IMG/VR virus record: IMGVR_UViG_3300032665_000003
Length of the DNA: 64,000 nt
Source of the DNA: a virus
Lineage: Duplodnaviria; Heunggongvirae; Uroviricota; Caudoviricetes
Strand: one strand, 5' to 3'
The translations under genes were made by a program, and so were the position numbers. Under the pieces are notes generated by a model. The model did not search any database, was not told the DNA's origin, and saw only the letters and a list, made by a program, of their open reading frames with translations. How positions within the stretch are numbered: the first letter of the stretch is position 1; each line of letters opens with the position of its first letter. Positions 494 to 62,005 of this stretch are shown here, piece by piece.

Positions 494-545
494 ATATTCA
501 ATTTATTCTAATACAATTCAGGTGTCAATTGAATTGGGCAAAAGT

Positions 546-620
546 GGAAGCAGTGATGGGACTCGCACCCACGATAGACAGAATATGAATCTGTTGCATT
601 GGCTACTATGCTACACTGCT
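546..620 (-). tRNA. tRNA with anticodon CAT (Met or lysidine-modified Ile2)
   Basis: Reverse complement folds with acceptor AGCAGTG/CACTGCT, anticodon stem ACAGA/TCTGT, loop TTCATAT, a T-arm with a TGCGAGT loop, and an encoded CCA. Confidence 0.55.
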
Positions 621-629
621 ATAATTTAA

Positions 630-716
630 TGGAGGACGTAGTAGGATTCGAACCTACGATGCGCTAAGCGTCCGGATTAAGAGCCAGGTGTATTCGACCA
701 CTATACTAATACGTCC
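630..716 (-). tRNA. tRNA with a long type-II-like variable arm; best fold gives anticodon loop CTCTTAA (CTT), so its identity is ambiguous
   Basis: Acceptor GGACGTA/TACGTCC, T-arm GTAGG-TTCGAAT-CCTAC, encoded CCA, a variable region of about 14 nt with a CGC-TTA-GCG hairpin, and one mismatch in the anticodon stem. Confidence 0.45.
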
Positions 717-8826: not shown

Positions 8827-8833
8827 ATGAATT

Positions 8834-8917
8834 GGTGCCTCATCTAGGTAACGATCCTAGCCAGTCAAAGACACCGGATTTACAGTCCGGACCCCGTCCT
8901 TAGAGGTATACTGAGGC
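8834..8917 (-). tRNA. tRNA-Tyr (GTA), type II
   Basis: Anticodon arm CCGGA-CTGTAAA-TCCGG, variable arm, T-arm CTAGG-ATCGTTA-CCTAG, CCA encoded. Confidence 0.7.
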
Positions 8918-9285: not shown

Positions 9286-9513
9286 ATAATTTTAGTCTTC
9301 GACTGCCTTCCATTCGAGGAATCCGGTATGAAAGATTCGAACGATATGTCCGGTAATTTCATTGATCATCGAACGATAATCGTCAGACTCCTTAAGAGTC
9401 ATGTAACCTTGCCTGTAGTAGTGAGCAACAGCTTCGGCACCAGACGCGAAAATCATTGTTCAGCTCCTTTGTTCAATCTCTATGATGCATAGTAGCAAAT
9501 CATTTTCTTACTG

Positions 9514-10492: not shown

Positions 10493-10933
10493 TTACTCGG
10501 ATTCAGGAATAGGAAGATCAACCAGATCATGTTCACGATCCAAATATTTCATGTCGATATGAACTGGATCCATGATCTTAAGCGATTCAACAACGTCATA
10601 TGGATCGAGCGGCCCGCACGTATAAACGTCGAGTTGTACCATTGCCGGGCTCTGTTCATCCCAGATATGCATGACAATATGACTGGTCTCAATAATAGTG
10701 GCAGCGGTCAATCCGCGATTACCTTCCATATCACTATAAACAGCATAGGGTCCCATGAGAATTTTCATACCAATACGGTCAATAAGAGCAGGCATCCACT
10801 CTTTAGATACCTTCTCAGGACAAACCATTGGTTTATTGACTTCTGCACGGACGATCAAATGCTTGTGAAATAGGGCCAACTTCTTATTACCTTTCTTAAT
10901 ATCATATTTATTTAAATGAAAAAGCCGCAGCAT
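10493..10933 (-). CDS. speD: S-adenosylmethionine decarboxylase proenzyme (pyruvoyl-dependent, SpeD/SpeH-like)
   Basis: Motif LTAATIIETSHIVMHIWDE..VDVYTCG, with an E-S self-cleavage site typical of bacterial AdoMetDC. The start is trimmed to the Met downstream of tRNA-Val. Confidence 0.55.
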   Translation of the reverse strand: MLRLFHLNKYDIKKGNKKLALFHKHLIVRAEVNKPMVCPEKVSKEWMPALIDRIGMKILMGPYAVYSDMEGNRGLTAATIIETSHIVMHIWDEQSPAMVQLDVYTCGPLDPYDVVESLKIMDPVHIDMKYLDREHDLVDLPIPESE

Positions 10934-10960
10934 TTTCCTGTATGCGCGGCTTCTTCTAAA

Positions 10961-11036
10961 TGGTAGGCCCTGACAGGATCGAACTGCCGACATTCTGCGT
11001 GTAAAGCAGACGCTCTCCCAGCTGAGCTAAGGGCCC
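10961..11036 (-). tRNA. tRNA-Val (TAC)
   Basis: Canonical cloverleaf GGGCCCT..AGGGCCT; anticodon arm TCTGC-TTTACAC-GCAGA. Confidence 0.8.
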
Positions 11037-11403: not shown

Positions 11404-11478
11404 TGGCGTCCCGAGAGAGAATCGAACTCCCATTCAGAGTTTAGAAGACTCTTGTCTTATCCATTAAACGACCGGGAC
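11404..11478 (-). tRNA. tRNA-Arg (TCT)
   Basis: Anticodon arm AGAGT-CTTCTAA-ACTCT; T-arm GGGAG-TTCGATT-CTCTC; CCA encoded. Confidence 0.8.
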
Positions 11479-11493
11479 ATATATTGTACACAA

Positions 11494-11537
11494 TGGCGCG
11501 AATAGGTTCAGGCTCTAATCCGCTGAGCTATGGAGCC
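11494..11537 (-). pseudogene. tRNA fragment: acceptor and D-arm (GGCTCCATAGCTCAGCGGATTAGAGCC) without an anticodon arm
   Basis: 44-nt tRNA-like 5' half ending ...CGCGCCA. Confidence 0.35.
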
Positions 11538-13506: not shown

Positions 13507-14226
13507 ATGTTTCACATTATATACAAAACTACTAACACTGTCAACAACAAAATCTACGTGGGTTATCATTTTCAAGAAAGTGACCCCTTCGCATTTGATG
13601 GATATTTAGGTAGCGGTAAAGGTATCTTAAAGGCTATAAAGAAATACGGGCGATACAAATTTATACGAGAAACGCTACATGTGTTTACTACGGAACATGA
13701 TGCGTTGTCTAAGGAAACTGAAATAGTTAATGAATCATTTATAATGAGGTCCGATGTCTACAATTTAGTACCGGGAGGAGGCAAACCTCCGTCACATAAA
13801 GGAAAGAAAAAAACCGAAAACCACAAAAAGAAAATAGGATGTTCACAAAAAGGGAAAGTTATATCTATAGCGCAACGAGATAAAACTAGCACGACGCTAA
13901 CAGGGAGAAAAGTAGGACCACACTCTGTTGAGCGTAAGAAAAACATTGCTAACGCATTACTTGGTGTAAAACACACCGAAGAACGTAAACAGAAGATGAG
14001 CGATAATCACGCTGACATGTCTGGGGCTAAAAACCCTATGTTCGGTAAAATTGGACCTGCAAATCCAAACTTCGGTAGAAAAGATTCAAGTACAGCAAAA
14101 CTTCGAAAGAAGCAAGCCGCACTTGAATCTCAGGTTATTGTCGAGTGCCCGCATTGCAAAAAGATCGGTAAAAGATCAGGAATGCAAGTTTGGCATTTCG
14201 ACCGCTGTCGCAAATTAAAAATATAG
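13507..14226 (+). CDS. GIY-YIG homing endonuclease with NUMOD-like repeats and a C-terminal CPHC zinc motif
   Basis: N-terminus HIIYKTTNTVNNKIYVGYH (GIY-YIG), repeated xKKxxxHKK units, and a C-terminal CPHCKKIGKRSGMQVWHFDRC. Confidence 0.75.
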   Translation: MFHIIYKTTNTVNNKIYVGYHFQESDPFAFDGYLGSGKGILKAIKKYGRYKFIRETLHVFTTEHDALSKETEIVNESFIMRSDVYNLVPGGGKPPSHKGKKKTENHKKKIGCSQKGKVISIAQRDKTSTTLTGRKVGPHSVERKKNIANALLGVKHTEERKQKMSDNHADMSGAKNPMFGKIGPANPNFGRKDSSTAKLRKKQAALESQVIVECPHCKKIGKRSGMQVWHFDRCRKLKI

Positions 14227-14778
14227 TCTAATTCTACTGTGTTTTGGAATACCGGACATCAAGTAATCCATTTGGTCAGCAAGGATGCTGCGGTTTTGGA
14301 GAACCAAATGTTCATAATGTGACGGTTCGTACGGTACGTACAGCAACTCCATACCAGCCTGCTTCAACGTCTTACAACCCTTCTTTTGGTTACAAGGCTT
14401 ACAAGCAGTTACGACGTTCATCCATTCATCTTCGCCACCAAGAAACCGCGGCTTGATGTGATCACGACTCAAGAATTGATGACTCGTGTGATGATCACCG
14501 CAATAGGCGCAGACGCTACGGTCACGAGCGAACAAAGTCTTGTTCGTCAGAATAACATGCGTGTGCTTCTTGAAGTCGAAACCAGTGCCCTTAATGGCGA
14601 TGATACTCGGAGTTTCAAGATAGCTTTGGGTACCGTCATTTCTCGTGCCACCACGATAACGAGCAACTACCGAACCTAGCGACCAGGCCACAAGACCCTT
14701 CGCGTGATAAGAAATTGCATCGTCGTTAGATACCCAAGTTCGGGGAATACCCGAAACGTCCAAGGCTAGAATCGCCAT
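14215..14778 (-). CDS. HNH endonuclease (McrA-like)
   Basis: Motif CAYCG...LSRDHIKPRFLGGEDEWMNVVTACKPCNQKKG. Confidence 0.65.
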   Translation of the reverse strand: MAILALDVSGIPRTWVSNDDAISYHAKGLVAWSLGSVVARYRGGTRNDGTQSYLETPSIIAIKGTGFDFKKHTHVILTNKTLFARDRSVCAYCGDHHTSHQFLSRDHIKPRFLGGEDEWMNVVTACKPCNQKKGCKTLKQAGMELLYVPYEPSHYEHLVLQNRSILADQMDYLMSGIPKHSRIRLYF

Positions 14779-15157: not shown

Positions 15158-15232
15158 TGGTGCCTAGAACAGGATTGAACTGCCGGCCTTCGCTTTACGA
15201 AAGCGCTGCTATACCAATTCCGCCACCTAGGC
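15158..15232 (-). tRNA. tRNA with anticodon loop TTCGTAA (CGT, Thr-like); the anticodon stem is atypical
   Basis: Acceptor GCCTAGG, T-arm GGCAG-TTCAATC-CTGTT, CCA encoded. The anticodon arm GCGCT-TTCGTAA-AGCGA has a G.A closing pair. Confidence 0.6.
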
Positions 15233-15479: not shown

Positions 15480-16157
15480 TCAATAGTTGTGAATTAACGC
15501 ATTGAGCATAGATTTCTCTAGATTTCTACGACTCATCAGTTGTGGAATGATTTCATTTCTCAACCAATTTCTTTCATGGTGATTGTCTTGATTAGTGATA
15601 TCATCAATGAAGGGGATACCGCGCCGATTGCACTGTTCTAAAATAACAGACTTCGGAACCGTAAGAAATGGTTTGCATTTAAAAAATTCTAGGCTTTCGT
15701 CAAATCTAAACTTAGCAAGTCCAAGATTCGAATGAGCGGCGCCCCGCATCAGGTCCAAAAACACTTGTTCGATATTGTCATTGAGGTGGTGTGCAGTTAC
15801 CGCTACAACCTCTTTACCAAGAGTTTTTCTGTAGTTACGCACAAACTCCCAACGCTGACTGCGGGCCTCTGCTTCAAGGTTGGAAGAATCTTTGAGATCC
15901 TTTCCGTAACCAACGACAAAGTTACATTGAATCTGTTTATCCTGAATAAACTGCTGAATGAGTTCCTTGTCGAGATAATCGTTGTCTCGAATACCGTGCT
16001 GAAAATGACAGACAGTAAAACCGATGCCTGCATTATTGCAGAAATCTAGCATGAACATACTGTCGGGTCCTCCTGATACCATCAGCAGGATTTCTCTACG
16101 ATCTTGCGAATACAGATTCACTAATTCTTGTTGAATCTTTTTCCATGCAACTGACAT
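15480..16157 (-). CDS. tilS: tRNA(Ile)-lysidine synthetase (TilS) N-terminal PP-loop domain protein
   Basis: Motifs LLMVSGGPDSMFMLDF ... VCHFQHGIRDNDYLDKELIQQF match the TilS signature (SGGxDS ... HxNHxLR). Confidence 0.7.
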   Translation of the reverse strand: MSVAWKKIQQELVNLYSQDRREILLMVSGGPDSMFMLDFCNNAGIGFTVCHFQHGIRDNDYLDKELIQQFIQDKQIQCNFVVGYGKDLKDSSNLEAEARSQRWEFVRNYRKTLGKEVVAVTAHHLNDNIEQVFLDLMRGAAHSNLGLAKFRFDESLEFFKCKPFLTVPKSVILEQCNRRGIPFIDDITNQDNHHERNWLRNEIIPQLMSRRNLEKSMLNALIHNY

Positions 16158-16177
16158 TTGAGTACCTCTTAGATGAT

Positions 16178-16253
16178 GGTGCCCGCACTAGGATTTGAAC
16201 CTAGGACCCCAGGTTTATGAGACCTGCGCTACTGACCACTGAGCTATACGGGC
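16178..16253 (-). tRNA. tRNA with anticodon CAT, probably tRNA-Ile2 (lysidine) given the adjacent tilS; otherwise elongator Met
   Basis: GCCCGTA/TGCGGGC acceptor; anticodon arm CAGGT-CTCATAA-ACCTG; T-arm CTAGG-TTCAAAT-CCTAG; CCA encoded. Lies 21 nt upstream of the tilS start on the same strand. Confidence 0.75.
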
Positions 16254-16493
16254 ATATTTCTTTAATTTTATCATAACAGATATAAAAAAATTGTCAACCG
16301 GGTTTTTTATTTTCTTTATGGTTGCGACGAGTTAGACCTTTTCTATATCCTATAGGAATTTCGTCCAATGGCGAAATTGATTTGTTAATCACTCCGTTAG
16401 TTATTCTGACTTTGTTTTTAGAGGCTAATGATCTTTTTCTGTTGGCTTCTTGGTGTTCAACTGAATCCGTATTTTTTGGTTTACCTTTATTCG

Positions 16494-16931
16494 CTAACCC
16501 GCCTTTTTAGCTCTTTCTCGCATGGCGTTCGTATAGGAACTATATTCTTCCTCCGTCATTCTGCTGACGTACTCTAAATAAGCTTTTTTGGCCAGAAGAC
16601 TGCGTTCTTCTACTGTTGTTTTTTCTATCCTTGCCAGAGCGCCCTTAAGGGCGCTCTCTTTGGTAAACCCTCCCACTCCGCCCAATCTCATATTATAATT
16701 TGAATGTTCGTTAAAGTTTTCGGTTAGCTTTCGTTCTAAATCATATGCTTCCGTTCGGGTTTCGGATATTAAAAGAATTTCCTTTCGAAAATTTTCTTTT
16801 CCATATTTTGAAATTGCGTTTTTTATTGCAGTTCCGCTCCCGTAATACGAATCCATTGGCTTGTTGGTCTTATGAACTCCTATATAGGTTTTGCTGTTAA
16901 CCAAATTAGTAATTCTATAAACAGTATACAT
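16494..16931 (-). CDS. GIY-YIG homing endonuclease
   Basis: MYTVYRITNLVNSKTYIGVH ... YYGSG. Confidence 0.7.
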   Translation of the reverse strand: MYTVYRITNLVNSKTYIGVHKTNKPMDSYYGSGTAIKNAISKYGKENFRKEILLISETRTEAYDLERKLTENFNEHSNYNMRLGGVGGFTKESALKGALARIEKTTVEERSLLAKKAYLEYVSRMTEEEYSSYTNAMRERAKKAG

Positions 16932-16986
16932 GCGAAATTTTCTCCGAATGTATTTAACATGTCGCAACCTAAACACTTAGATTTTT

Positions 16987-18755: not shown

Positions 18756-19139
18756 CTACATGAATAGCTTCAAGGCTTTCAAATCTTCACCGATCAAGTC
18801 TTCTCGAATAGGACCGAGTCCTAAACAAGTAACAGTCGGTTCGTTGAATACCGTGAACCCAGCGTCTTTAACTAACGAGACACCGCATACATTCTTGTAT
18901 GCCTCTTGAATCACTTCTAGTTCGGCTACCGTGTCAACAATAAGAGTGATCTTATACGCATGATCACTGTTCTTGTACTGGATTGCTTGAAGATTGCAGT
19001 CCGAAGAAACCTCAAGACTAACTGCATTCCAATAAGCATGAAGGTATGCGTGACCTGCCATAGAAGCAAGCTTTCCGCGATTACCTTTCATCTTGTCTAC
19101 GCTTTCTTTAGCGAAGATGCAGTACATTTTCAGTTTCAT
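18756..19139 (-). CDS. pth2: peptidyl-tRNA hydrolase, PTH2 family (start trimmed to MKLKM)
   Basis: N-terminal KMYCIFAKESVDKMKGNRGKLASMAGHAYLHAY resembles the PTH2 signature KMvlvvRtDLkMgKGKiAAQ.sHAa. Confidence 0.5.
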   Translation of the reverse strand: MKLKMYCIFAKESVDKMKGNRGKLASMAGHAYLHAYWNAVSLEVSSDCNLQAIQYKNSDHAYKITLIVDTVAELEVIQEAYKNVCGVSLVKDAGFTVFNEPTVTCLGLGPIREDLIGEDLKALKLFM

Positions 19140-19340: not shown

Positions 19341-19429
19341 TGGTCAGGGTAGCAGGATTCGAACCTGCGTGAACGATTCCGCCTCTCGTTTCCAAAACGA
19401 GCGCTCCGACCTGGCTGAGCTATACCCTG
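19341..19429 (-). tRNA. tRNA with anticodon TGG (Pro-like) but an unusually long variable region of about 16 nt
   Basis: Perfect acceptor CAGGGTA/TACCCTG; anticodon arm CTCGT-TTTGGAA-ACGAG; variable region AGGCGGAATCGTTCAC; T-arm GCAGG-TTCGAAT-CCTGC. Confidence 0.5.
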
Positions 19430-19756: not shown

Positions 19757-19835
19757 TTGGTGGGTCTAATTGGAATCGAACCCACGTCTGCTGCTTTGGA
19801 GACAGCGGTACTACTATTGTACGAAGTGCGCATGA
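19757..19835 (-). pseudogene. tRNA-like sequence (anticodon arm GCTGT-CTCCAAA-GCAGC would give CCA/Trp); the acceptor stem does not pair
   Basis: Good D-arm (GTAC-AATAGTA-GTAC), anticodon arm and T-loop GGGTTCGATTCC, but 5'/3' acceptor complementarity is absent. Flanked by more tRNA-like debris at 19680-19940. Confidence 0.25.
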
Positions 19836-23558: not shown

Positions 23559-24455
23559 TCAATTGCGGGTTAACCCGTTTAACTTGAAGTTAACAAATCC
23601 TACGATGTGGTCTGCTACATTTATATTGCAATATCGTTCGAAGCCCTCAAAGCCTGGAGCTGAGTTTGCTTCACAAACTTTAAATCCGTTTTCATCAAAC
23701 AAGAGGTCTATCCCTGCAATTTGCAATCCGCAAACTCTAGCAGTCTCTCTCGCAATGTATTCAATTTCGTCGGTGACCTCAAATGTTTCACCGTGACCAC
23801 CATTTGAAATATTAGCACGGAAGTCACCGACTGGAGCAATACGTTTCATTGCCCCAATCACCTTGCCGCCCACAACAAACACTCTGAGGTCTTCACCTGG
23901 GCGGTGTCCTACGTATTCTTGTACTATTAAGGTTTTTGCACTTTTTAGACTATCAGTGAAGTCCATAAGCTTTTTGAAATCTTTTTTTCTTTCACATAGA
24001 TATACACCTTCACCATAGCTTCCACTAATCACTTTTACTATGCAAGGCCAACCAATATTTCTATCTACAATATCAACTTCAACTGGAAACCTAACTAGCA
24101 TCGTATTTGGAATTGGAATTCCATTGCTCACTAGTAATTGTGATGTTCTAAGTTTATCTTTAGCAATCTCAATTCCCTCAGAGGAATTTACACAAGGTGT
24201 TCCTTCTTCTTCAAACTGTCTGATCAAAGCCCTTGCAAACTCATTTGTACCTGATCCAGTTCTAGTCAACAAAAGTTTGGGTTTCTCAAGGGTCAATCCA
24301 TTGTAATTTATACCAGTTTCTATACCTTGCCTAACAACTAAATCAAAGTTTTCTGGATTGGCAAACTGTACGTTTATACCTTGGTTGGCAAAACTTTCTA
24401 GGAGACGAGCATTCTCATAATCCTTTTCTCTTTTGGTCAAAATTACTACAGACAT
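23559..24455 (-). CDS. rimK: RimK-like ATP-grasp ligase (alpha-L-glutamate ligase / glutathione-synthetase fold)
   Basis: MSVVILTKREKD ... VVKVISGSYGEGVYL ... LIVQEYV ... GAMKRIA ... CGLQIAGIDLLFDENGFKVCEANSAPGFEG is a typical RimK motif set. Start trimmed to MSVVIL. Confidence 0.6.
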   Translation of the reverse strand: MSVVILTKREKDYENARLLESFANQGINVQFANPENFDLVVRQGIETGINYNGLTLEKPKLLLTRTGSGTNEFARALIRQFEEEGTPCVNSSEGIEIAKDKLRTSQLLVSNGIPIPNTMLVRFPVEVDIVDRNIGWPCIVKVISGSYGEGVYLCERKKDFKKLMDFTDSLKSAKTLIVQEYVGHRPGEDLRVFVVGGKVIGAMKRIAPVGDFRANISNGGHGETFEVTDEIEYIARETARVCGLQIAGIDLLFDENGFKVCEANSAPGFEGFERYCNINVADHIVGFVNFKLNGLTRN

Positions 24456-24672
24456 ACTGAATCTTTCATACTGTGTATATTTATGACATTTCATATTTCA
24501 TATTTCATATTTCACGTCGTATTTAAGAATAAGATAACAAATTAGAGGATGATCATTAGTCATAAATTCAATGTTGTACCCATCAAACTTTTTTTGATAC
24601 GGCAGGTGTTTGATTCCCGATTCTCGTATTGCCTTATTAATTTGATGGAAAACCTAGGTTGGTACGAAAATT

Positions 24673-24983: not shown

Positions 24984-25517
24984 TTAGTTTTTCAGATATA
25001 CGAGGATGTTTTCAGGTGAAGATTCACCGTAGGGATCCGTATCGCAATTGTGTTCGATGCCAGGTTCAATAAACCACTTTTCAATGCGTCCATTGTCAAC
25101 GATTACCGCATATCGCCAAGAACGAACACCGAAACCCAAATTATCCTTAGCAACAAGCATGTTCATCTTGCTAGTGAATTCACCAGAACCATCCGGAATA
25201 ACCTTAACGTTCTTTAGATTTTGGTCTTGAGCCCACTTGTTCATGACGAACGAATCGTTCACTGACAAGCAGTAGATTTCGTCAATACCCAAATCCTTAA
25301 ATTGTTGATAGTTATTTTCAAAACCCGGAAGTTGGTAAGTAGAGCAAGTAGGGGTAAATGCTCCAGGCAGCGCAAATAGCACAACTCGCTTTCCTGCGAA
25401 ATAGTCAAATGAAGTTACTTCTTGCCAGCGATATGGATTGGGTCCTTCGATACTATCGTCACGAACCCGAGTCTTAAAGACTACGCTAGGGACTAGCGTA
25501 GGAAGGTCAGCACTCAT
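24984..25517 (-). CDS. peroxiredoxin, Prx5-like atypical 2-Cys (AhpC/TSA family)
   Basis: Motif VVLFALPGAFTPTCS. Start trimmed to MSADLPT. Confidence 0.7.
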   Translation of the reverse strand: MSADLPTLVPSVVFKTRVRDDSIEGPNPYRWQEVTSFDYFAGKRVVLFALPGAFTPTCSTYQLPGFENNYQQFKDLGIDEIYCLSVNDSFVMNKWAQDQNLKNVKVIPDGSGEFTSKMNMLVAKDNLGFGVRSWRYAVIVDNGRIEKWFIEPGIEHNCDTDPYGESSPENILVYLKN

Positions 25518-58378: not shown

Positions 58379-61300
58379 TTATGAGCTAGCATTGTTACCC
58401 AATGCACCAGTATTAAGAACGCGAACTGGGATATAAATGAATTCTGCTGCTTTCACCGGCTCAATCGCACAGTCTACCCAAAGTTCATTTCTGTCGATTC
58501 TTGCTGGTGTGTTGTTTGACAAATCACATACAACCAAATAATCGTATACACCGCGCTTTGCTACTAGGTCTACAAACAGGGTTTGAATGACACCAGAGAT
58601 TTGCTGTCTAGTGATACTATCGTTTGGTTCGAATACGAATGGTCTTGCTGCCACTGTCAATTGACGACGAATGTATCCAATAAGTCTTGCTACGTTAACT
58701 CTATCAAGTGCAGAATTTGATGCATAGCTAGTTTTATTACCGTAGTTTAGCAATCCATTTCCAGTGAAGAATACCAGTGGGTTGATTTGATTAGAATATA
58801 GAACGTCACGAATTCCGACTCTAGAATTCTTAACTACTACAAATTCACCCGTCATTGCACTAACGTATCCGATGTTGGTAGCGTTGTCTATGATACCACG
58901 ACGCGTACCTGCTGGAGCAAACCATGGATAAGAAACACTATCACTACGTAAGAATGTTCTGATCATCATGTGCGATGCAGGAACTGCAACAAGATTGCCG
59001 CTCAAGTCAGAAGTGATACCTGATGGATAGAACAGACCCAAATAAGTATCACGAGTTACAAGACCGTCTTCACCAGTTGACGTTGCGTTGGCAGCATTAG
59101 TTGCCCATGCTTGAATTAAGGTAGCATCATCTGCTAGTCTCATCGGCGTATCACCGATGATGAATCCAGTGTCTCCTCTATCGTTATTGAGAACAACCAT
59201 GTTAGGTTGTAGTTCAGGATAGTTCGGAGTTGCAATCAAGGTGAATGCGTTATCTTCGTCACGAATTGCAGTATTTGTGTCGATTGCCTCACGCATTGCC
59301 TTAACAACCATTGCTCTTTGTGCCTTGCGGCCCATATACGGAGCACCGTTTGTTTGCAACCCGGATTCTGTTACCCAGGCATCAGTTTGATTGGGAATAT
59401 TTGCTCCTGGGAATCTGTTATTGTTAAAGTAGTTAGAACGGAATTGCTTTACATTATATCCCGAACGACGAGTATTGAACAATAACATACCTACTGGATA
59501 TAAAGTAGGATCTGGTGCATCCAAATCAAGATAGTTGCTAGTCAACAATGACTTGATCGTTGGAATAGGATCATTAACCGGGCTAACGTATTGTGTAGTG
59601 GCCCAACGTGCATCTGCAAACAGAACACCAGTTGAACTGGTCTGATCAGTATTATCTAATCTTACCCATTGATCTACGCCATTTACGCTTTCCCAACGAT
59701 TTATAAGAGGATAATTCTCTAGATCACTAGTGTCGATCCAAATATCACCATATGCAAGGGCCTGACCGCTTGATTGCAGCATTGGTTCTGAAGCACTTAT
59801 AAGTGGTCCGTTAGGGTCGGTCATGTTTGATCCTGATGGAAGAGGAAGACCTGAACTGCTGTATGATGCATTTCTATAGCCCTTCCATCCAGTAGTAGTA
59901 TTTACCATAATATCTACTTGATCTACTACACTATAAAACCAATTTGTTAGATCAGCAGGAGCCGCAGTTGGTGCGCCTTCGTTTGCAGTCATGTAAAATT
60001 GTATCCAATTTGACAATTCAACCATGTAGTTTGCGGCGCCGGAGCCTGCATAGTAAGAAACTTTAGTGACTGCTCCTGTTGAAGTTTCTTCAACTCTTAC
60101 AGTCAAGTCATTTCCTGATGGAGTAATTCCACCAGTACCAGTACCACCTAATTGGCTACCTGGGAATGTTACTAAGTCTCCTACAGTATAACCAGTTCCT
60201 GGATTTGCAAAAGAAATAGGATTTACTTGATAATTTTGGAAGTTATTAGTAACGCTAATTGACAAATCGGTTCCTACGCCAGTAGTATATGTTGGTGTAG
60301 GTGTCATCAATGGTGATACAAACGGACCAACTTTGACTCCTTCAGTATAACTTACAACAAATCCAGCGTCACTCATTAAACCGTTTGGTTGGAATGTACT
60401 AGTGTCAAAGTCATTTACTACGATCACGCCACCCTCAGTGTGAGTCAATTGAATTTCTCCAGTATCCAATAACATAGCTGTTGTATATGGAATAGCAGCA
60501 GTCGTCCAAGCAGTTACAAAGTCAAGCGCTGTAGCGTTATCTGCGACACTAAGCGTATAAGGTGCTGACAATCCGTTTGATCCTGGAATTGAAACATACA
60601 CATGACTAGTATATGGGCCATTAGTAAATGTAGGATCTTGCATAGAACCAGTAATTACAGTTGGACCAGATGTAAGTCTTTCCCAATAATAAATTGGACC
60701 TGCTTGATAACCAGGAACGCCTGAAGTATTGATGATATCAGCATCATAGTTGTATTGCGCATAGACCGTTCCAGCTGGAATGTTTTTTCCACCAGTTGAA
60801 TCTAATGAATTGATCGCAGCAACGTCGCTAGTAGCGAATGATACAGTTTTAGAAGACCAAACTGCCTGTGTGCTGTCCCATTGTGATATTACTGGATTGA
60901 ATCCAGTGCCAGCAGATCCAATCTTGATCCAAACTGATCCAGTTGGGCTCGGGAAAAGTTGACCTTGTTGCCATAATGGCTGCTGTGCAGATGTACCATA
61001 GGCAACATTCGGTTGGAAATAATTACCTGCGGTAATGCCCAAGGAGGTAAGCATTGTGCCGGTACCTGAAATATTAATGTAAAACGGAACGCTGTTATTA
61101 GGAGCCTGTCCAGTTTGTGTAGAGAAAAGTTGAAGATTTCCGCCTACAACACTTGCTGACAAATACGGACGCTGTAAAGCATTAATAGCTGATGCTAGAC
61201 CAAAAACAGTAGTCTGTCCAGTAATAGTATAAACGGGACCATTCGCTCCGTTTGCAGGGCCACCCATCGCAATGCTGATAGAATCACCTGAATTCAACGT

Positions 61301-62005
61301 TGGTAGTGAATTGCTACCTTGAACCGTAGGAACCGAAGCGAACCAAGCAGACGTTCCGATTGCCACCCATTGATTAAATGAGTTCTTATAGAAGAATTGT
61401 TTAGCATTGTTTGCAGAAGGATATGTGTAATTAGGAATTGCGATCACCGCGTAATCACCCACTGAACCCAAGCTTTGAATTGGATATCCAGCAGATACTA
61501 GCGTAATATCGCTAATTTCAATCGGAGATTGAATTTCAAATTGCCCAGTAGTAGAATTAAATTCGTAAATGCCCCAAGTGGTGTTAGTAGTATCTAACCA
61601 ATAAGTTCCGTCAGCTGGATTTCCAGTAGGACGACCAGTCTGTCCTACTAGACTTGCGAGGTCGATATCTGCTCTTAGGCAGTAAATTAAGTTAGATACA
61701 CCTAGTGCAGAATATGCAGCTAGCAAACCATATTCATTGAGTTCGTATCCTTGAATAGGAGTACCATTCGAAGTCGTATAGAAGAATGGATTACCATATA
61801 GAGTTACAAGATCACGTTGACTAGTGATTTGAAATAGCGTGTTTGCGTTTGCTGCTGTGGTTCCGACTGCTACAGAAGTAGAAGTAGGATCAGCTTTGTT
61901 TGCTGCGGTCGCGAGCAAAACAAAAGGAATTGTACCGAGCGGGGCCGGAAGATATTGAGATTGATCAATGATCGTTACTTCTACACCTGGAGAAACTAGT
62001 GTCAT
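58379..62005 (-). CDS. contractile tail sheath protein (T4 gp18-like)
   Basis: N-terminus MTLVSPGVEVTIIDQSQY compares with gp18 MTLLSPGIELKETTVQ. The C-terminus RVNVARLIGYIRRQL..YDYLVVCDLSNNTPARIDRNELWVDCAIEP compares with gp18 RINVRRLFNMLK..YEYRVVCDTTNNTPSVIDRNEFVATFYIQP. Start trimmed to MTLVSPG. Confidence 0.75.
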   Translation of the reverse strand: MTLVSPGVEVTIIDQSQYLPAPLGTIPFVLLATAANKADPTSTSVAVGTTAANANTLFQITSQRDLVTLYGNPFFYTTSNGTPIQGYELNEYGLLAAYSALGVSNLIYCLRADIDLASLVGQTGRPTGNPADGTYWLDTTNTTWGIYEFNSTTGQFEIQSPIEISDITLVSAGYPIQSLGSVGDYAVIAIPNYTYPSANNAKQFFYKNSFNQWVAIGTSAWFASVPTVQGSNSLPTLNSGDSISIAMGGPANGANGPVYTITGQTTVFGLASAINALQRPYLSASVVGGNLQLFSTQTGQAPNNSVPFYINISGTGTMLTSLGITAGNYFQPNVAYGTSAQQPLWQQGQLFPSPTGSVWIKIGSAGTGFNPVISQWDSTQAVWSSKTVSFATSDVAAINSLDSTGGKNIPAGTVYAQYNYDADIINTSGVPGYQAGPIYYWERLTSGPTVITGSMQDPTFTNGPYTSHVYVSIPGSNGLSAPYTLSVADNATALDFVTAWTTAAIPYTTAMLLDTGEIQLTHTEGGVIVVNDFDTSTFQPNGLMSDAGFVVSYTEGVKVGPFVSPLMTPTPTYTTGVGTDLSISVTNNFQNYQVNPISFANPGTGYTVGDLVTFPGSQLGGTGTGGITPSGNDLTVRVEETSTGAVTKVSYYAGSGAANYMVELSNWIQFYMTANEGAPTAAPADLTNWFYSVVDQVDIMVNTTTGWKGYRNASYSSSGLPLPSGSNMTDPNGPLISASEPMLQSSGQALAYGDIWIDTSDLENYPLINRWESVNGVDQWVRLDNTDQTSSTGVLFADARWATTQYVSPVNDPIPTIKSLLTSNYLDLDAPDPTLYPVGMLLFNTRRSGYNVKQFRSNYFNNNRFPGANIPNQTDAWVTESGLQTNGAPYMGRKAQRAMVVKAMREAIDTNTAIRDEDNAFTLIATPNYPELQPNMVVLNNDRGDTGFIIGDTPMRLADDATLIQAWATNAANATSTGEDGLVTRDTYLGLFYPSGITSDLSGNLVAVPASHMMIRTFLRSDSVSYPWFAPAGTRRGIIDNATNIGYVSAMTGEFVVVKNSRVGIRDVLYSNQINPLVFFTGNGLLNYGNKTSYASNSALDRVNVARLIGYIRRQLTVAARPFVFEPNDSITRQQISGVIQTLFVDLVAKRGVYDYLVVCDLSNNTPARIDRNELWVDCAIEPVKAAEFIYIPVRVLNTGALGNNASS

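Follow-up and report, generated by a model that had tools for sequence, protein, structure and literature searches.

The locus described here raises the question of whether a bacteriophage can carry, as one unit, both a rare-codon tRNA and the enzyme that gives this tRNA its identity. It lies in a stretch of 64,000 nucleotides (hereafter the window) from a virus of the class Caudoviricetes (IMG/VR record IMGVR_UViG_3300032665_000003), in which an open reading frame (ORF) for a 225-residue protein resembling the lysidine synthetase TilS directly follows a tRNA gene with the anticodon CAU (CAT in the DNA). An earlier note, made from the sequence of the window alone, had suggested that the phage supplies both the tRNA and its modifying enzyme. 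This suggestion is supported by conserved synteny, by Ile2 signatures in 13 of 14 tilS-linked tRNAs and by the avoidance of AUA codons within tilS, which together tie the enzyme to tRNA(CAU) and to AUA decoding. The preferred reading, to which a probability of roughly 0.72 is assigned, is that a jumbo myovirus here carries a self-contained cassette for the decoding of AUA.

Briefly, a sigma-70-type promoter would give rise to a single transcript comprising the tRNA(CAU), with its CCA end encoded, and the mRNA for a 225-residue TilS made up of the catalytic domain only. The tRNA would be released by host RNases, and the phage TilS would convert its C34 to lysidine using ATP and lysine, thereby switching it from a Met-type acceptor reading AUG to an Ile acceptor reading AUA, which would then be charged by isoleucyl-tRNA synthetase (IleRS). 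With about one in four Ile codons of the phage being AUA, the decoding capacity for phage genes would rise. Lysidine formation at C34 by the phage enzyme is predicted, on the indirect evidence of the linkage to Ile2-type tRNA(CAU) genes and of AUA avoidance.

By its sequence, the 225-residue protein is a member of the TilS N-terminal-domain family. It scored 127.7 bits against TIGR02432 (lysidine_TilS_N, an NCBIfam equivalog domain with a curated cut-off of 93.6 bits) and matched Pfam PF01171, the profile search that the earlier note had recommended, over positions 2-182 of 182 (E 3.6e-34). Three TilS structures headed the ranking of PDB sequences, namely those of Aquifex aeolicus (1wy5, E 8e-16, in first place), E. 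coli (1ni5, E 1.5e-13) and G. kaustophilus (3a2k, E 4e-10), whereas TtuA was far weaker (E 1.5e-4). The two stretches from which the protein had originally been recognized as a TilS-type PP-loop enzyme, MVSGGPDSMFML and TVCHFQHGIRDND, are both present in the ORF, and the alignment to the solved TilS enzymes shows the motifs SGGPDS, HFQHGIR, RxQRW, TAHHLNDNIE, RG, KPFL, DDITN and ERNWLRNEIIP to be kept. Correspondingly, all patterns shared by the N-terminal domains (NTDs) of 1wy5, 1ni5 and 3a2k (HxxHxxR, RxxR[YW], HHxxDxxE, Dx[ST]N and RNxxR..P) were found. An AlphaFold model computed from an alignment of the protein and its relatives reached a pLDDT of 89.4 and a pTM of 0.88, and its best Foldseek matches were TilS structures, with TM-scores of 0.77-0.80 normalized on the query and 0.40-0.58 on the target.

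Assignment to another PP-loop enzyme, such as QueC, MnmA or TtcA, had been named as the outcome that would overturn the TilS call. The models for QueC, TtcA and LarE gave weak matches to some members of the clade only, those for TtcA and TtuA in NCBIfam to 4-5 of the 13 members aligned. A TtcA/TtuA-type Fe-S thiolase was rejected: its scores are much weaker, and no invariant or near-invariant cysteine exists in the clade, which makes such an enzyme unlikely. The protein is best described as a minimal TilS that most likely works like TilS, without being a canonical member of the family.

The protein differs from canonical TilS in its architecture. Residues 15-219 align to residues 20-225 of the 317-residue A. 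aeolicus TilS, and residues 19-210 to residues 12-202 of the 433-residue E. coli TilS, so that the protein ends at about residue 225 of the former and residue 210 of the latter. In these alignments, as in the Foldseek target coverage, both C-terminal domains (CTD1 and CTD2) are absent, and the protein as predicted is the N-terminal catalytic domain alone. The earlier family assignment therefore stands for this domain and does not extend to a full TilS architecture. To date, TilS enzymes have been described as types I and II only, always with at least one appended domain (PMC11947777, PMC12514573). CTD1, present in both types, has been placed close to the tRNA's anticodon stem and elbow (PMC11947777, PMC12514573), and type I additionally possesses CTD2, which reads the acceptor stem (PMC11947777). 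The window protein has none of the C-terminal tRNA-binding domains of which each type carries at least one.

Its short form is shared by a whole clade. Relatives obtained by a word-indexed search were 36-65% identical and 190-270 residues long. In an alignment of 13 members every sequence stops at the same column, and 25 residues are invariant, among them, at the TilS motifs, H51, H54, R102, H123, H124, D127, E130, D186, T188, N189, R196, N197, R200 and P205; in the members of 259-270 residues the extra length is an internal insertion and not a C-terminal domain. All 13 match TIGR02432, none carries the TilS C-terminal Pfam domain, and PF01171 is the only Pfam family found apart from a weak QueC match in two. 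When 1.84 billion cluster representatives were searched with a profile, the best matches came from about 50 clusters, defined at the 50% identity level, with E values of 1e-97 to about 1e-42, nearly all of them 190-270 residues long and matched end to end; cellular or canonical proteins of 290-520 residues appeared only below about 164 bits. The best relative in 185,579 species-representative genomes was only 36% identical. An IMG/VR scan with the single 225-residue protein gave no match, and the same scan with the clade alignment gave 8 loci. Contigs of the clade are phage-like: they encode rIIB, homing endonucleases, DNA ligase, RNase H and Thg1 as well as small ORFs of the T4 type, and a number of them come from the viral contigs of IMG/VR, where they reach 455 kb.

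It is on this clade-wide conservation that a truncation or pseudogene was rejected. The ORF is only about half as long as a typical bacterial TilS, and a PHROGs scan assigned it to no family at E <= 0.01, as might be expected of a decaying, functionless fragment of a captured bacterial tilS. Against decay, the roughly 50 clusters keep their length, their catalytic motifs and their invariant residues, the fold is predicted to be compact with high confidence, and the Shine-Dalgarno sequence, the operon context and AUA avoidance are conserved, which renders this explanation very improbable. A split gene, with the C-terminal domain in the 74-residue ORF downstream, was likewise rejected; this ORF has no Pfam match, and the genes downstream differ in every relative.

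The evidence tying the short TilS to its tRNA comes from a comparison of loci, for each of which the length of the tilS ORF was determined and the flanks were scanned with ARAGORN. A tRNA(CAU) gene lay in the flanks of 14 of the 22 independent short-TilS loci, compared with none of 69 metagenomic loci with a long TilS (Fisher, p = 3e-11) and 2 of 80 loci from species-representative genomes, or 2 of all 149 cellular loci (p = 3e-13). In the short set the linked tRNA was always encoded on the tilS strand, and in 12 loci it was the nearest tRNA. The same-strand adjacency that the earlier note had pointed out in the window was confirmed by ARAGORN and by reading of the ORF, but the gap between the tRNA, including its encoded CCA, and the ATG measures 19 nt and not 21 nt. 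It is 22 nt in locus L020 (TilS 63% identical to that of the window), 24 nt in locus L007 (58%), 0.5-2.4 kb in ten other linked loci and 6 kb in one. In both L020 (TTGACA-17-TATTAT) and L007 (TTGAAG...TATAAT), too, a promoter-like sequence lies just ahead of the tRNA, and the spacer contains a Shine-Dalgarno sequence. Because the arrangement recurs at 58-63% TilS identity and is found in 14 of 22 against 2 of 149 loci, the adjacency of tRNA(CAU) and tilS is not due to chance.

In the two cellular exceptions (L118 and L164) the tRNAs are of the elongator-Met type (GGCGGCG..., loop AUCAUAA) or of the initiator type (CGCGGGG, C1xA72). In L164, a Calditrichaceae metagenome-assembled genome (CAYWBI010000069.1, 4706-4887), the genes immediately upstream of tilS, which is canonical and encodes 483 aa, are those of an initiator tRNA-fMet and an elongator tRNA-Met, neither being of the Ile2 type.

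Within the window, the distance from the promoter-like site, which was identified by consensus match only, to the 5′ end of the tRNA is 17 nt, and a minus-strand terminator scan gave no candidate site in the interval from the tRNA to where tilS begins. Taken together with the short spacer, this layout suggests that the tRNA and tilS would be co-transcribed.

The linked tRNAs as a group bear the marks of tRNA-Ile2. All 14 have A73, the anticodon loop CUCAUAA and an encoded CCA, and none has initiator features. By the discriminators of Silva 2006, taken as stated in the text of that paper, a tRNA in which G3 or A3 goes with C70 or U70 is neither Met nor fMet, and Ile tRNAs often have C4-G69 and C5-G68 (PMC1635315). 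E. coli TilS is described as reading U33, C34, A37, G27.U43, C4-G69 and C5-G68 (Ikeuchi 2005, as cited in PMC12069591 and PMC12514573). An Ile2-type acceptor signature (G3-C70 or U3-A70, or C4-G69 with C5-G68) occurs in 13 of the 14, and several also have G27.U43. For reference, E. coli ileX (GGCCCCU, G27.U43) and T4 tRNA-Ile (GGCCCUG) fit the Ile2 pattern, while E. coli metT (GGCUACG) does not.

The exception among the 14 is the tRNA of the window itself, in which C4-G69 is the only one of the C4-G69 and C5-G68 pairs present. Its acceptor stem reads G1-C72, C2-G71, C3-G70, C4-G69, G5-C68, U6.G67 and A7-U66, with A73 as discriminator, and its anticodon arm CAGGU CUCAUAA ACCUG. Of the Ile2 elements for which the earlier note had proposed a check, C4-G69 and the loop context of A37 were thus found, and C5-G68 was not. 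The loop, with U33, A37 and A38, is that of tRNA-Ile2, and initiator features are lacking: the 1-72 pair is formed, three consecutive G-C pairs do not occur in the anticodon stem, and C takes the place of A at position 11. Nor does the tRNA have either of the elongator-Met reference acceptor stems, GGCUACG and GGCGGCG. In these respects, the clear initiator or elongator Met elements that would have spoken against the proposal were not found. Outside the anticodon, the identity elements of E. coli IleRS are reportedly A73, C4-G69, U12-A23 and C29-G41, a set said to go back to work by Nureki in 1994. A73, C4-G69 and U12-A23 are present in the tRNA of the window and 29-41 is G-C, it being understood that the elements of E. 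coli may not be those of the host.

An ordinary elongator tRNA-Met, standing beside tilS without meaning, would leave TilS to act on the tRNA-Ile2 of the host or on a phage tRNA outside the window, which covers only part of the phage genome. Some features of the tRNA agree with this alternative and weigh against the cassette. It carries C3-G70 and G5-C68, lacks G27.U43 and C29-G41, and in overall identity comes to 61-62% with the Met references against 58% with the Ile2 references ileX and T4, in a small reference set (ileX, metT, T4 Ile and three cellular tRNAs). Phage tRNA islands, moreover, often include tRNA(CAU) genes. However, its best overall matches in the same small set are the TilS-linked phage tRNAs of loci L073 (68%) and L020 (65%). 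The positional counterparts in L020 (G3-C70, C4-G69, C5-G68) and L007 (G3-C70, C4-G69, G27.U43) carry G3-C70, which is excluded from Met and fMet (PMC1635315); relative to the former, pairs 3-70 and 5-68 of the window tRNA are both flipped with pairing kept. The order of promoter, tRNA and tilS is preserved at 58-63% TilS identity, the linkage occurs in 14 of 22 phage loci against 2 of 149 cellular ones, and the other CAU tRNA of the window is the more Met-like. On balance, the elongator-Met alternative appears unlikely. It is proposed that the tRNA is Ile2, mainly from its position and context, its own sequence being ambiguous; the tRNA-Met label given to it and to its counterparts by anticodon-based tools (here ARAGORN) is probably wrong. 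BLAST searches of both CAU tRNAs of the window against phage and E. coli collections returned tRNA-Lys, tRNA-Met or tRNA-Ile at 74-85%, which is not diagnostic, and the second one was recorded as having no BLAST match in these collections.

A different line of evidence is provided by codon usage. At a G+C content of 41.3%, the window uses AUA at 14.6 per 1000 codons, or 24% of its Ile codons, so that the frequent use of AUA expected in the earlier note holds in the sense that the codon is fairly common, with figures that refer to the phage side. By contrast with this usage, none of the 15 Ile codons of the window's tilS is AUA. The 22 phage tilS genes together have 354 Ile codons, of which 7 are AUA, where the usage of their neighbours predicts 62.8. 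AUA is missing altogether from 14 of 20 tilS genes, compared with 18 of 96 ORFs nearby that are similar in Ile content (p = 1.5e-5). Avoidance of this codon is to be expected in a gene that must be expressed before efficient reading of AUA sets in, and it fits, as independent and indirect support, with a TilS function.

The second tRNA(CAU) of the window, which begins at position 545 according to ARAGORN and not at 546 as first listed, had been taken for the true Met tRNA. It is indeed closest to cellular elongator Met tRNAs (64-65% identity, against 36-52% for the Ile2 references), but it is aberrant, with U73 and, in the T-loop UGCGAGU, G55. Its acceptor stem begins A1-U72, G2-C71, C3-G70, A4-U69, its anticodon loop is UUCAUAU, and the IleRS elements A73, C4-G69, U12-A23, C29-G41 and A38 are all absent. 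It is probably a non-canonical elongator-Met-type tRNA of the phage. The anticodon arms of the two CAU tRNAs are very different, so that reading of the arm alone could suffice to tell them apart in the window.

This does not hold for the Pseudomonas jumbo phage MIJ3 (LR588166.1), whose TilS is likewise short (203 residues). Two of its tRNA(CAU) genes, at 8831-8907 and 9312-9388, agree fully in the D arm, the anticodon arm, the variable loop and the T arm and have entirely different acceptor stems (CCCUCGG and GGGACUU), which looks like an identity swap between Met and Ile2 that preserved the body of the tRNA. Because the two share the anticodon arm, an enzyme reading the arm only could not separate them. 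A third tRNA(CAU) of MIJ3, at 11442-11518, is initiator-like (C1xA72).

Besides the ambiguous sequence of the window tRNA, several points weigh against the cassette. The MIJ3 pair is hard to square with an enzyme devoid of acceptor-stem-reading domains, and how a minimal enzyme avoids modifying Met tRNAs is unexplained; even for type II enzymes, which lack CTD2, the mechanism by which tRNA-Met is rejected is given as unknown (PMC11947777, PMC12514573). Removal of CTD2 from Burkholderia cenocepacia TilS caused a dramatic drop in activity, some of which persisted when more enzyme was used, and CTD1 has a part in catalysis (PMC11947777). The phage enzyme, as read from its sequence, would have to be active with neither. 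Eight of the 22 short-TilS loci have no tRNA(CAU) in the available flanks, and the AUA figures cover the phage side only.

Some of these points would also suit a minimal enzyme that is not limited to one cognate tRNA, and that either modifies host Met and fMet tRNAs as well, in the service of takeover or shut-off, or attaches a different nucleophile in place of lysine or acts elsewhere than at C34. CTD1 and CTD2, which are implicated in substrate discrimination (PMC11947777), are both missing, the MIJ3 pair offers identical anticodon arms, and the clade has motifs of its own. On the other hand, all motifs of the solved TilS enzymes are kept, the tight linkage to a single Ile2-type tRNA(CAU) and the avoidance of AUA favour AUA decoding over sabotage, and lysidinylated Met tRNAs would harm the translation of the phage too. 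Such promiscuity is accordingly judged improbable.

The conserved clade-specific motifs, both outside the catalytic core, are an N-terminal W-R-K-I-R helix (residues 5-11) and a C-terminal RRNLEKS motif (residues 210-216), in which R211 and N212 are invariant. Speculatively, both could be RNA contacts standing in for the C-terminal domains. A more far-reaching proposal, held tentatively and at slightly less than even odds, is that the 190-270-residue proteins of phage contigs may constitute a third architectural class of TilS, a catalytic domain alone that would be fully active and would form, with the tRNA-Ile2 accompanying it, a portable cassette for AUA decoding. Its preference for the co-encoded tRNA and its rejection of Met and fMet tRNAs would in that case be due to the anticodon arm, the clade helices or dimerization. 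An extension of this proposal, in which the enzyme is deliberately promiscuous and reprograms host CAU tRNAs too, is less likely.

Among known systems, the best match is the type II TilS of A. aeolicus (NTD plus CTD1; 1wy5, 2e21, 2e89), with a Foldseek E value of 1e-13 and a TM-score of 0.78 on the query. Both proteins have the PP-loop and all NTD motifs and lack the acceptor-stem-reading CTD2, but the A. aeolicus enzyme possesses the CTD1 that the window protein is without. The Pseudomonas jumbo phages MIJ3 and PA5oct (Arenbergviridae) also encode a TilS consisting of the N-terminal domain only, in a genome with several tRNA(CAU) genes. The MIJ3 protein, however, is 27% identical to that of the window, and some 5.6 kb separate its gene from the closest tRNA gene, so that it is in no operon with tRNA(CAU). 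In the available part of PMC6892783, from 2019, this putative TilS is presented as the first for phages, with a putative function, and no discussion of its domain architecture was found there.

The MIJ3/PA5oct group, Atu_ph07 and Phosso are distantly related to the window phage, the tail sheaths being 44-47% identical (46% for the MIJ3/PA5oct group). The tail sheath of the window is unusually long (1208 residues); only about 57% of its length can be aligned with those of PA5oct, Atu_ph07 and Phosso, and PHROG tail-sheath profiles match it only from about residue 650 on.

Phage CAU tRNAs that read AUA via lysidine are familiar from T4, T4-like phages and a vibriophage. A tRNA-Ile(CAU) is present in T4 and in all tRNA-bearing T4-like phages examined (PMC1524935), the tRNA(CAU) of the vibriophage has been found to carry k2C34 (PMC13191261), and T4 tRNA-Ile shares C3-G70, C4-G69 and C5-G68 with several of the TilS-linked tRNAs. 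In these phages no TilS has been reported (PMC1524935, PMC13191261), and presumably that of the host is used, whereas here the enzyme is encoded in cis. Putative viral TilS enzymes are also known from the jumbo phage RsoM2USA (PMC8504454), where the protein has 349 residues and hence room for a C-terminal domain, and from 39 of 41 chloroviruses (bioRxiv 10.1101/2020.07.06.190819). The rationale offered in both cases was the AU-rich codon usage of the virus, which employs AUA far more often than its host does, and an operon with the substrate tRNA was not described (bioRxiv 10.1101/2020.07.06.190819; PMC8504454). In view of these examples, the earlier description of the arrangement as unusual was overstated. 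Phage TilS is already known; in the literature searched, no description was found of its minimal form (as a 'type III' or NTD-only TilS), of a systematic linkage or tight operon with an Ile2-type tRNA(CAU), or of AUA avoidance in phage tilS.

Most bacteria cannot live without TilS, and the enzyme has been put forward as a target for antibiotics. The way in which it tells tRNA-Ile2 from tRNA-Met, which is nearly identical, is still under study, and the present clade, in which a catalytic domain alone is encoded beside its presumptive substrate, offers ready minimal enzyme-tRNA pairs for testing what this domain recognizes by itself. If the proposal of a third class is true, these pairs would be a minimal natural system for studying how lysidine synthetases make the distinction. 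The locus suggests that some jumbo phages supply a rare-codon tRNA together with the enzyme giving it its identity, which, if true, would make AUA decoding independent of the host. The strong avoidance of AUA within tilS is in addition a simple mark in the sequence by which further self-dependent decoding genes could be sought.

The features of the locus and its surroundings are collected in Table 1.

Table 1. Position of the putative cassette and of other features in the window.
Feature	Coordinates	Strand	Basis or remarks
Sigma-70-type promoter-like site	16270..16297	-	TTGACA, 16-nt spacer, TATGAT, TG ahead of -10; 11/12 consensus matches
tRNA(CAU), encoded CCA, 77 nt	16177..16253	-	ARAGORN; Rfam RF00005, 63.2 bits
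Spacer between tRNA and tilS, 19 nt, with Shine-Dalgarno AAGAGG	16158..16176	-	Sequence reading
tilS-like gene, 225 aa, ATG start	15480..16157	-	TIGR02432, PF01171, solved-structure matches
Second tRNA(CAU), probably elongator-Met-type, non-canonical	545..620	-	ARAGORN; Rfam, 59.3 bits
tRNA island, 30 tRNA genes	545-20841	-	ARAGORN; 27 of 30 calls backed by Rfam
tRNA-Lys(CUU), 87 nt, non-canonical	630-716	-	Long variable arm
AdoMet-decarboxylase-like gene	10493-10993		In island
HNH homing endonuclease gene	14215-14778		Among island tRNAs
'tRNA-Phe(AAA)'-like gene	15158-15232	-	Rfam, 38 bits
SegE-like GIY-YIG homing endonuclease gene	16494-16976		Among island tRNAs
PTH2 peptidyl-tRNA hydrolase gene	18756-19139		In island
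tRNA-Pro(UGG), 89 nt, non-canonical	19341-19429	-
Partial tRNA-like match	19769-19822	-	Rfam, 30 bits
RimK-like ATP-grasp gene	23559-24494	-	PF08443, E 1.7e-46; beside island
Peroxiredoxin (Redoxin/AhpC-TSA) gene	24984-25517	-	Beside island
Tail sheath gene	58379-62005	-	1208 aa

Both tilS and its adjoining tRNA(CAU) are located inside the minus-strand tRNA island, in which ARAGORN found no tRNA-Ile(GAU) and no tRNA for Gly, Asp, Glu, Cys or Tyr. The RimK-like and peroxiredoxin genes beside the island are also present in a near-identical contig (L005). The 'tRNA-Phe(AAA)'-like gene, just downstream of tilS and the 74-residue ORF, has the loop GUAAAGC, a T stem of 4 bp and an imperfect D stem, and counterparts occur in the near-identical relatives L005 (7886-7960) and L006 (2049-2123); a Phe anticodon with A34 does not belong to the normal decoders of bacteria. 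The homing endonuclease genes between the tRNAs of the island recall segB within the tRNA cluster of T4.

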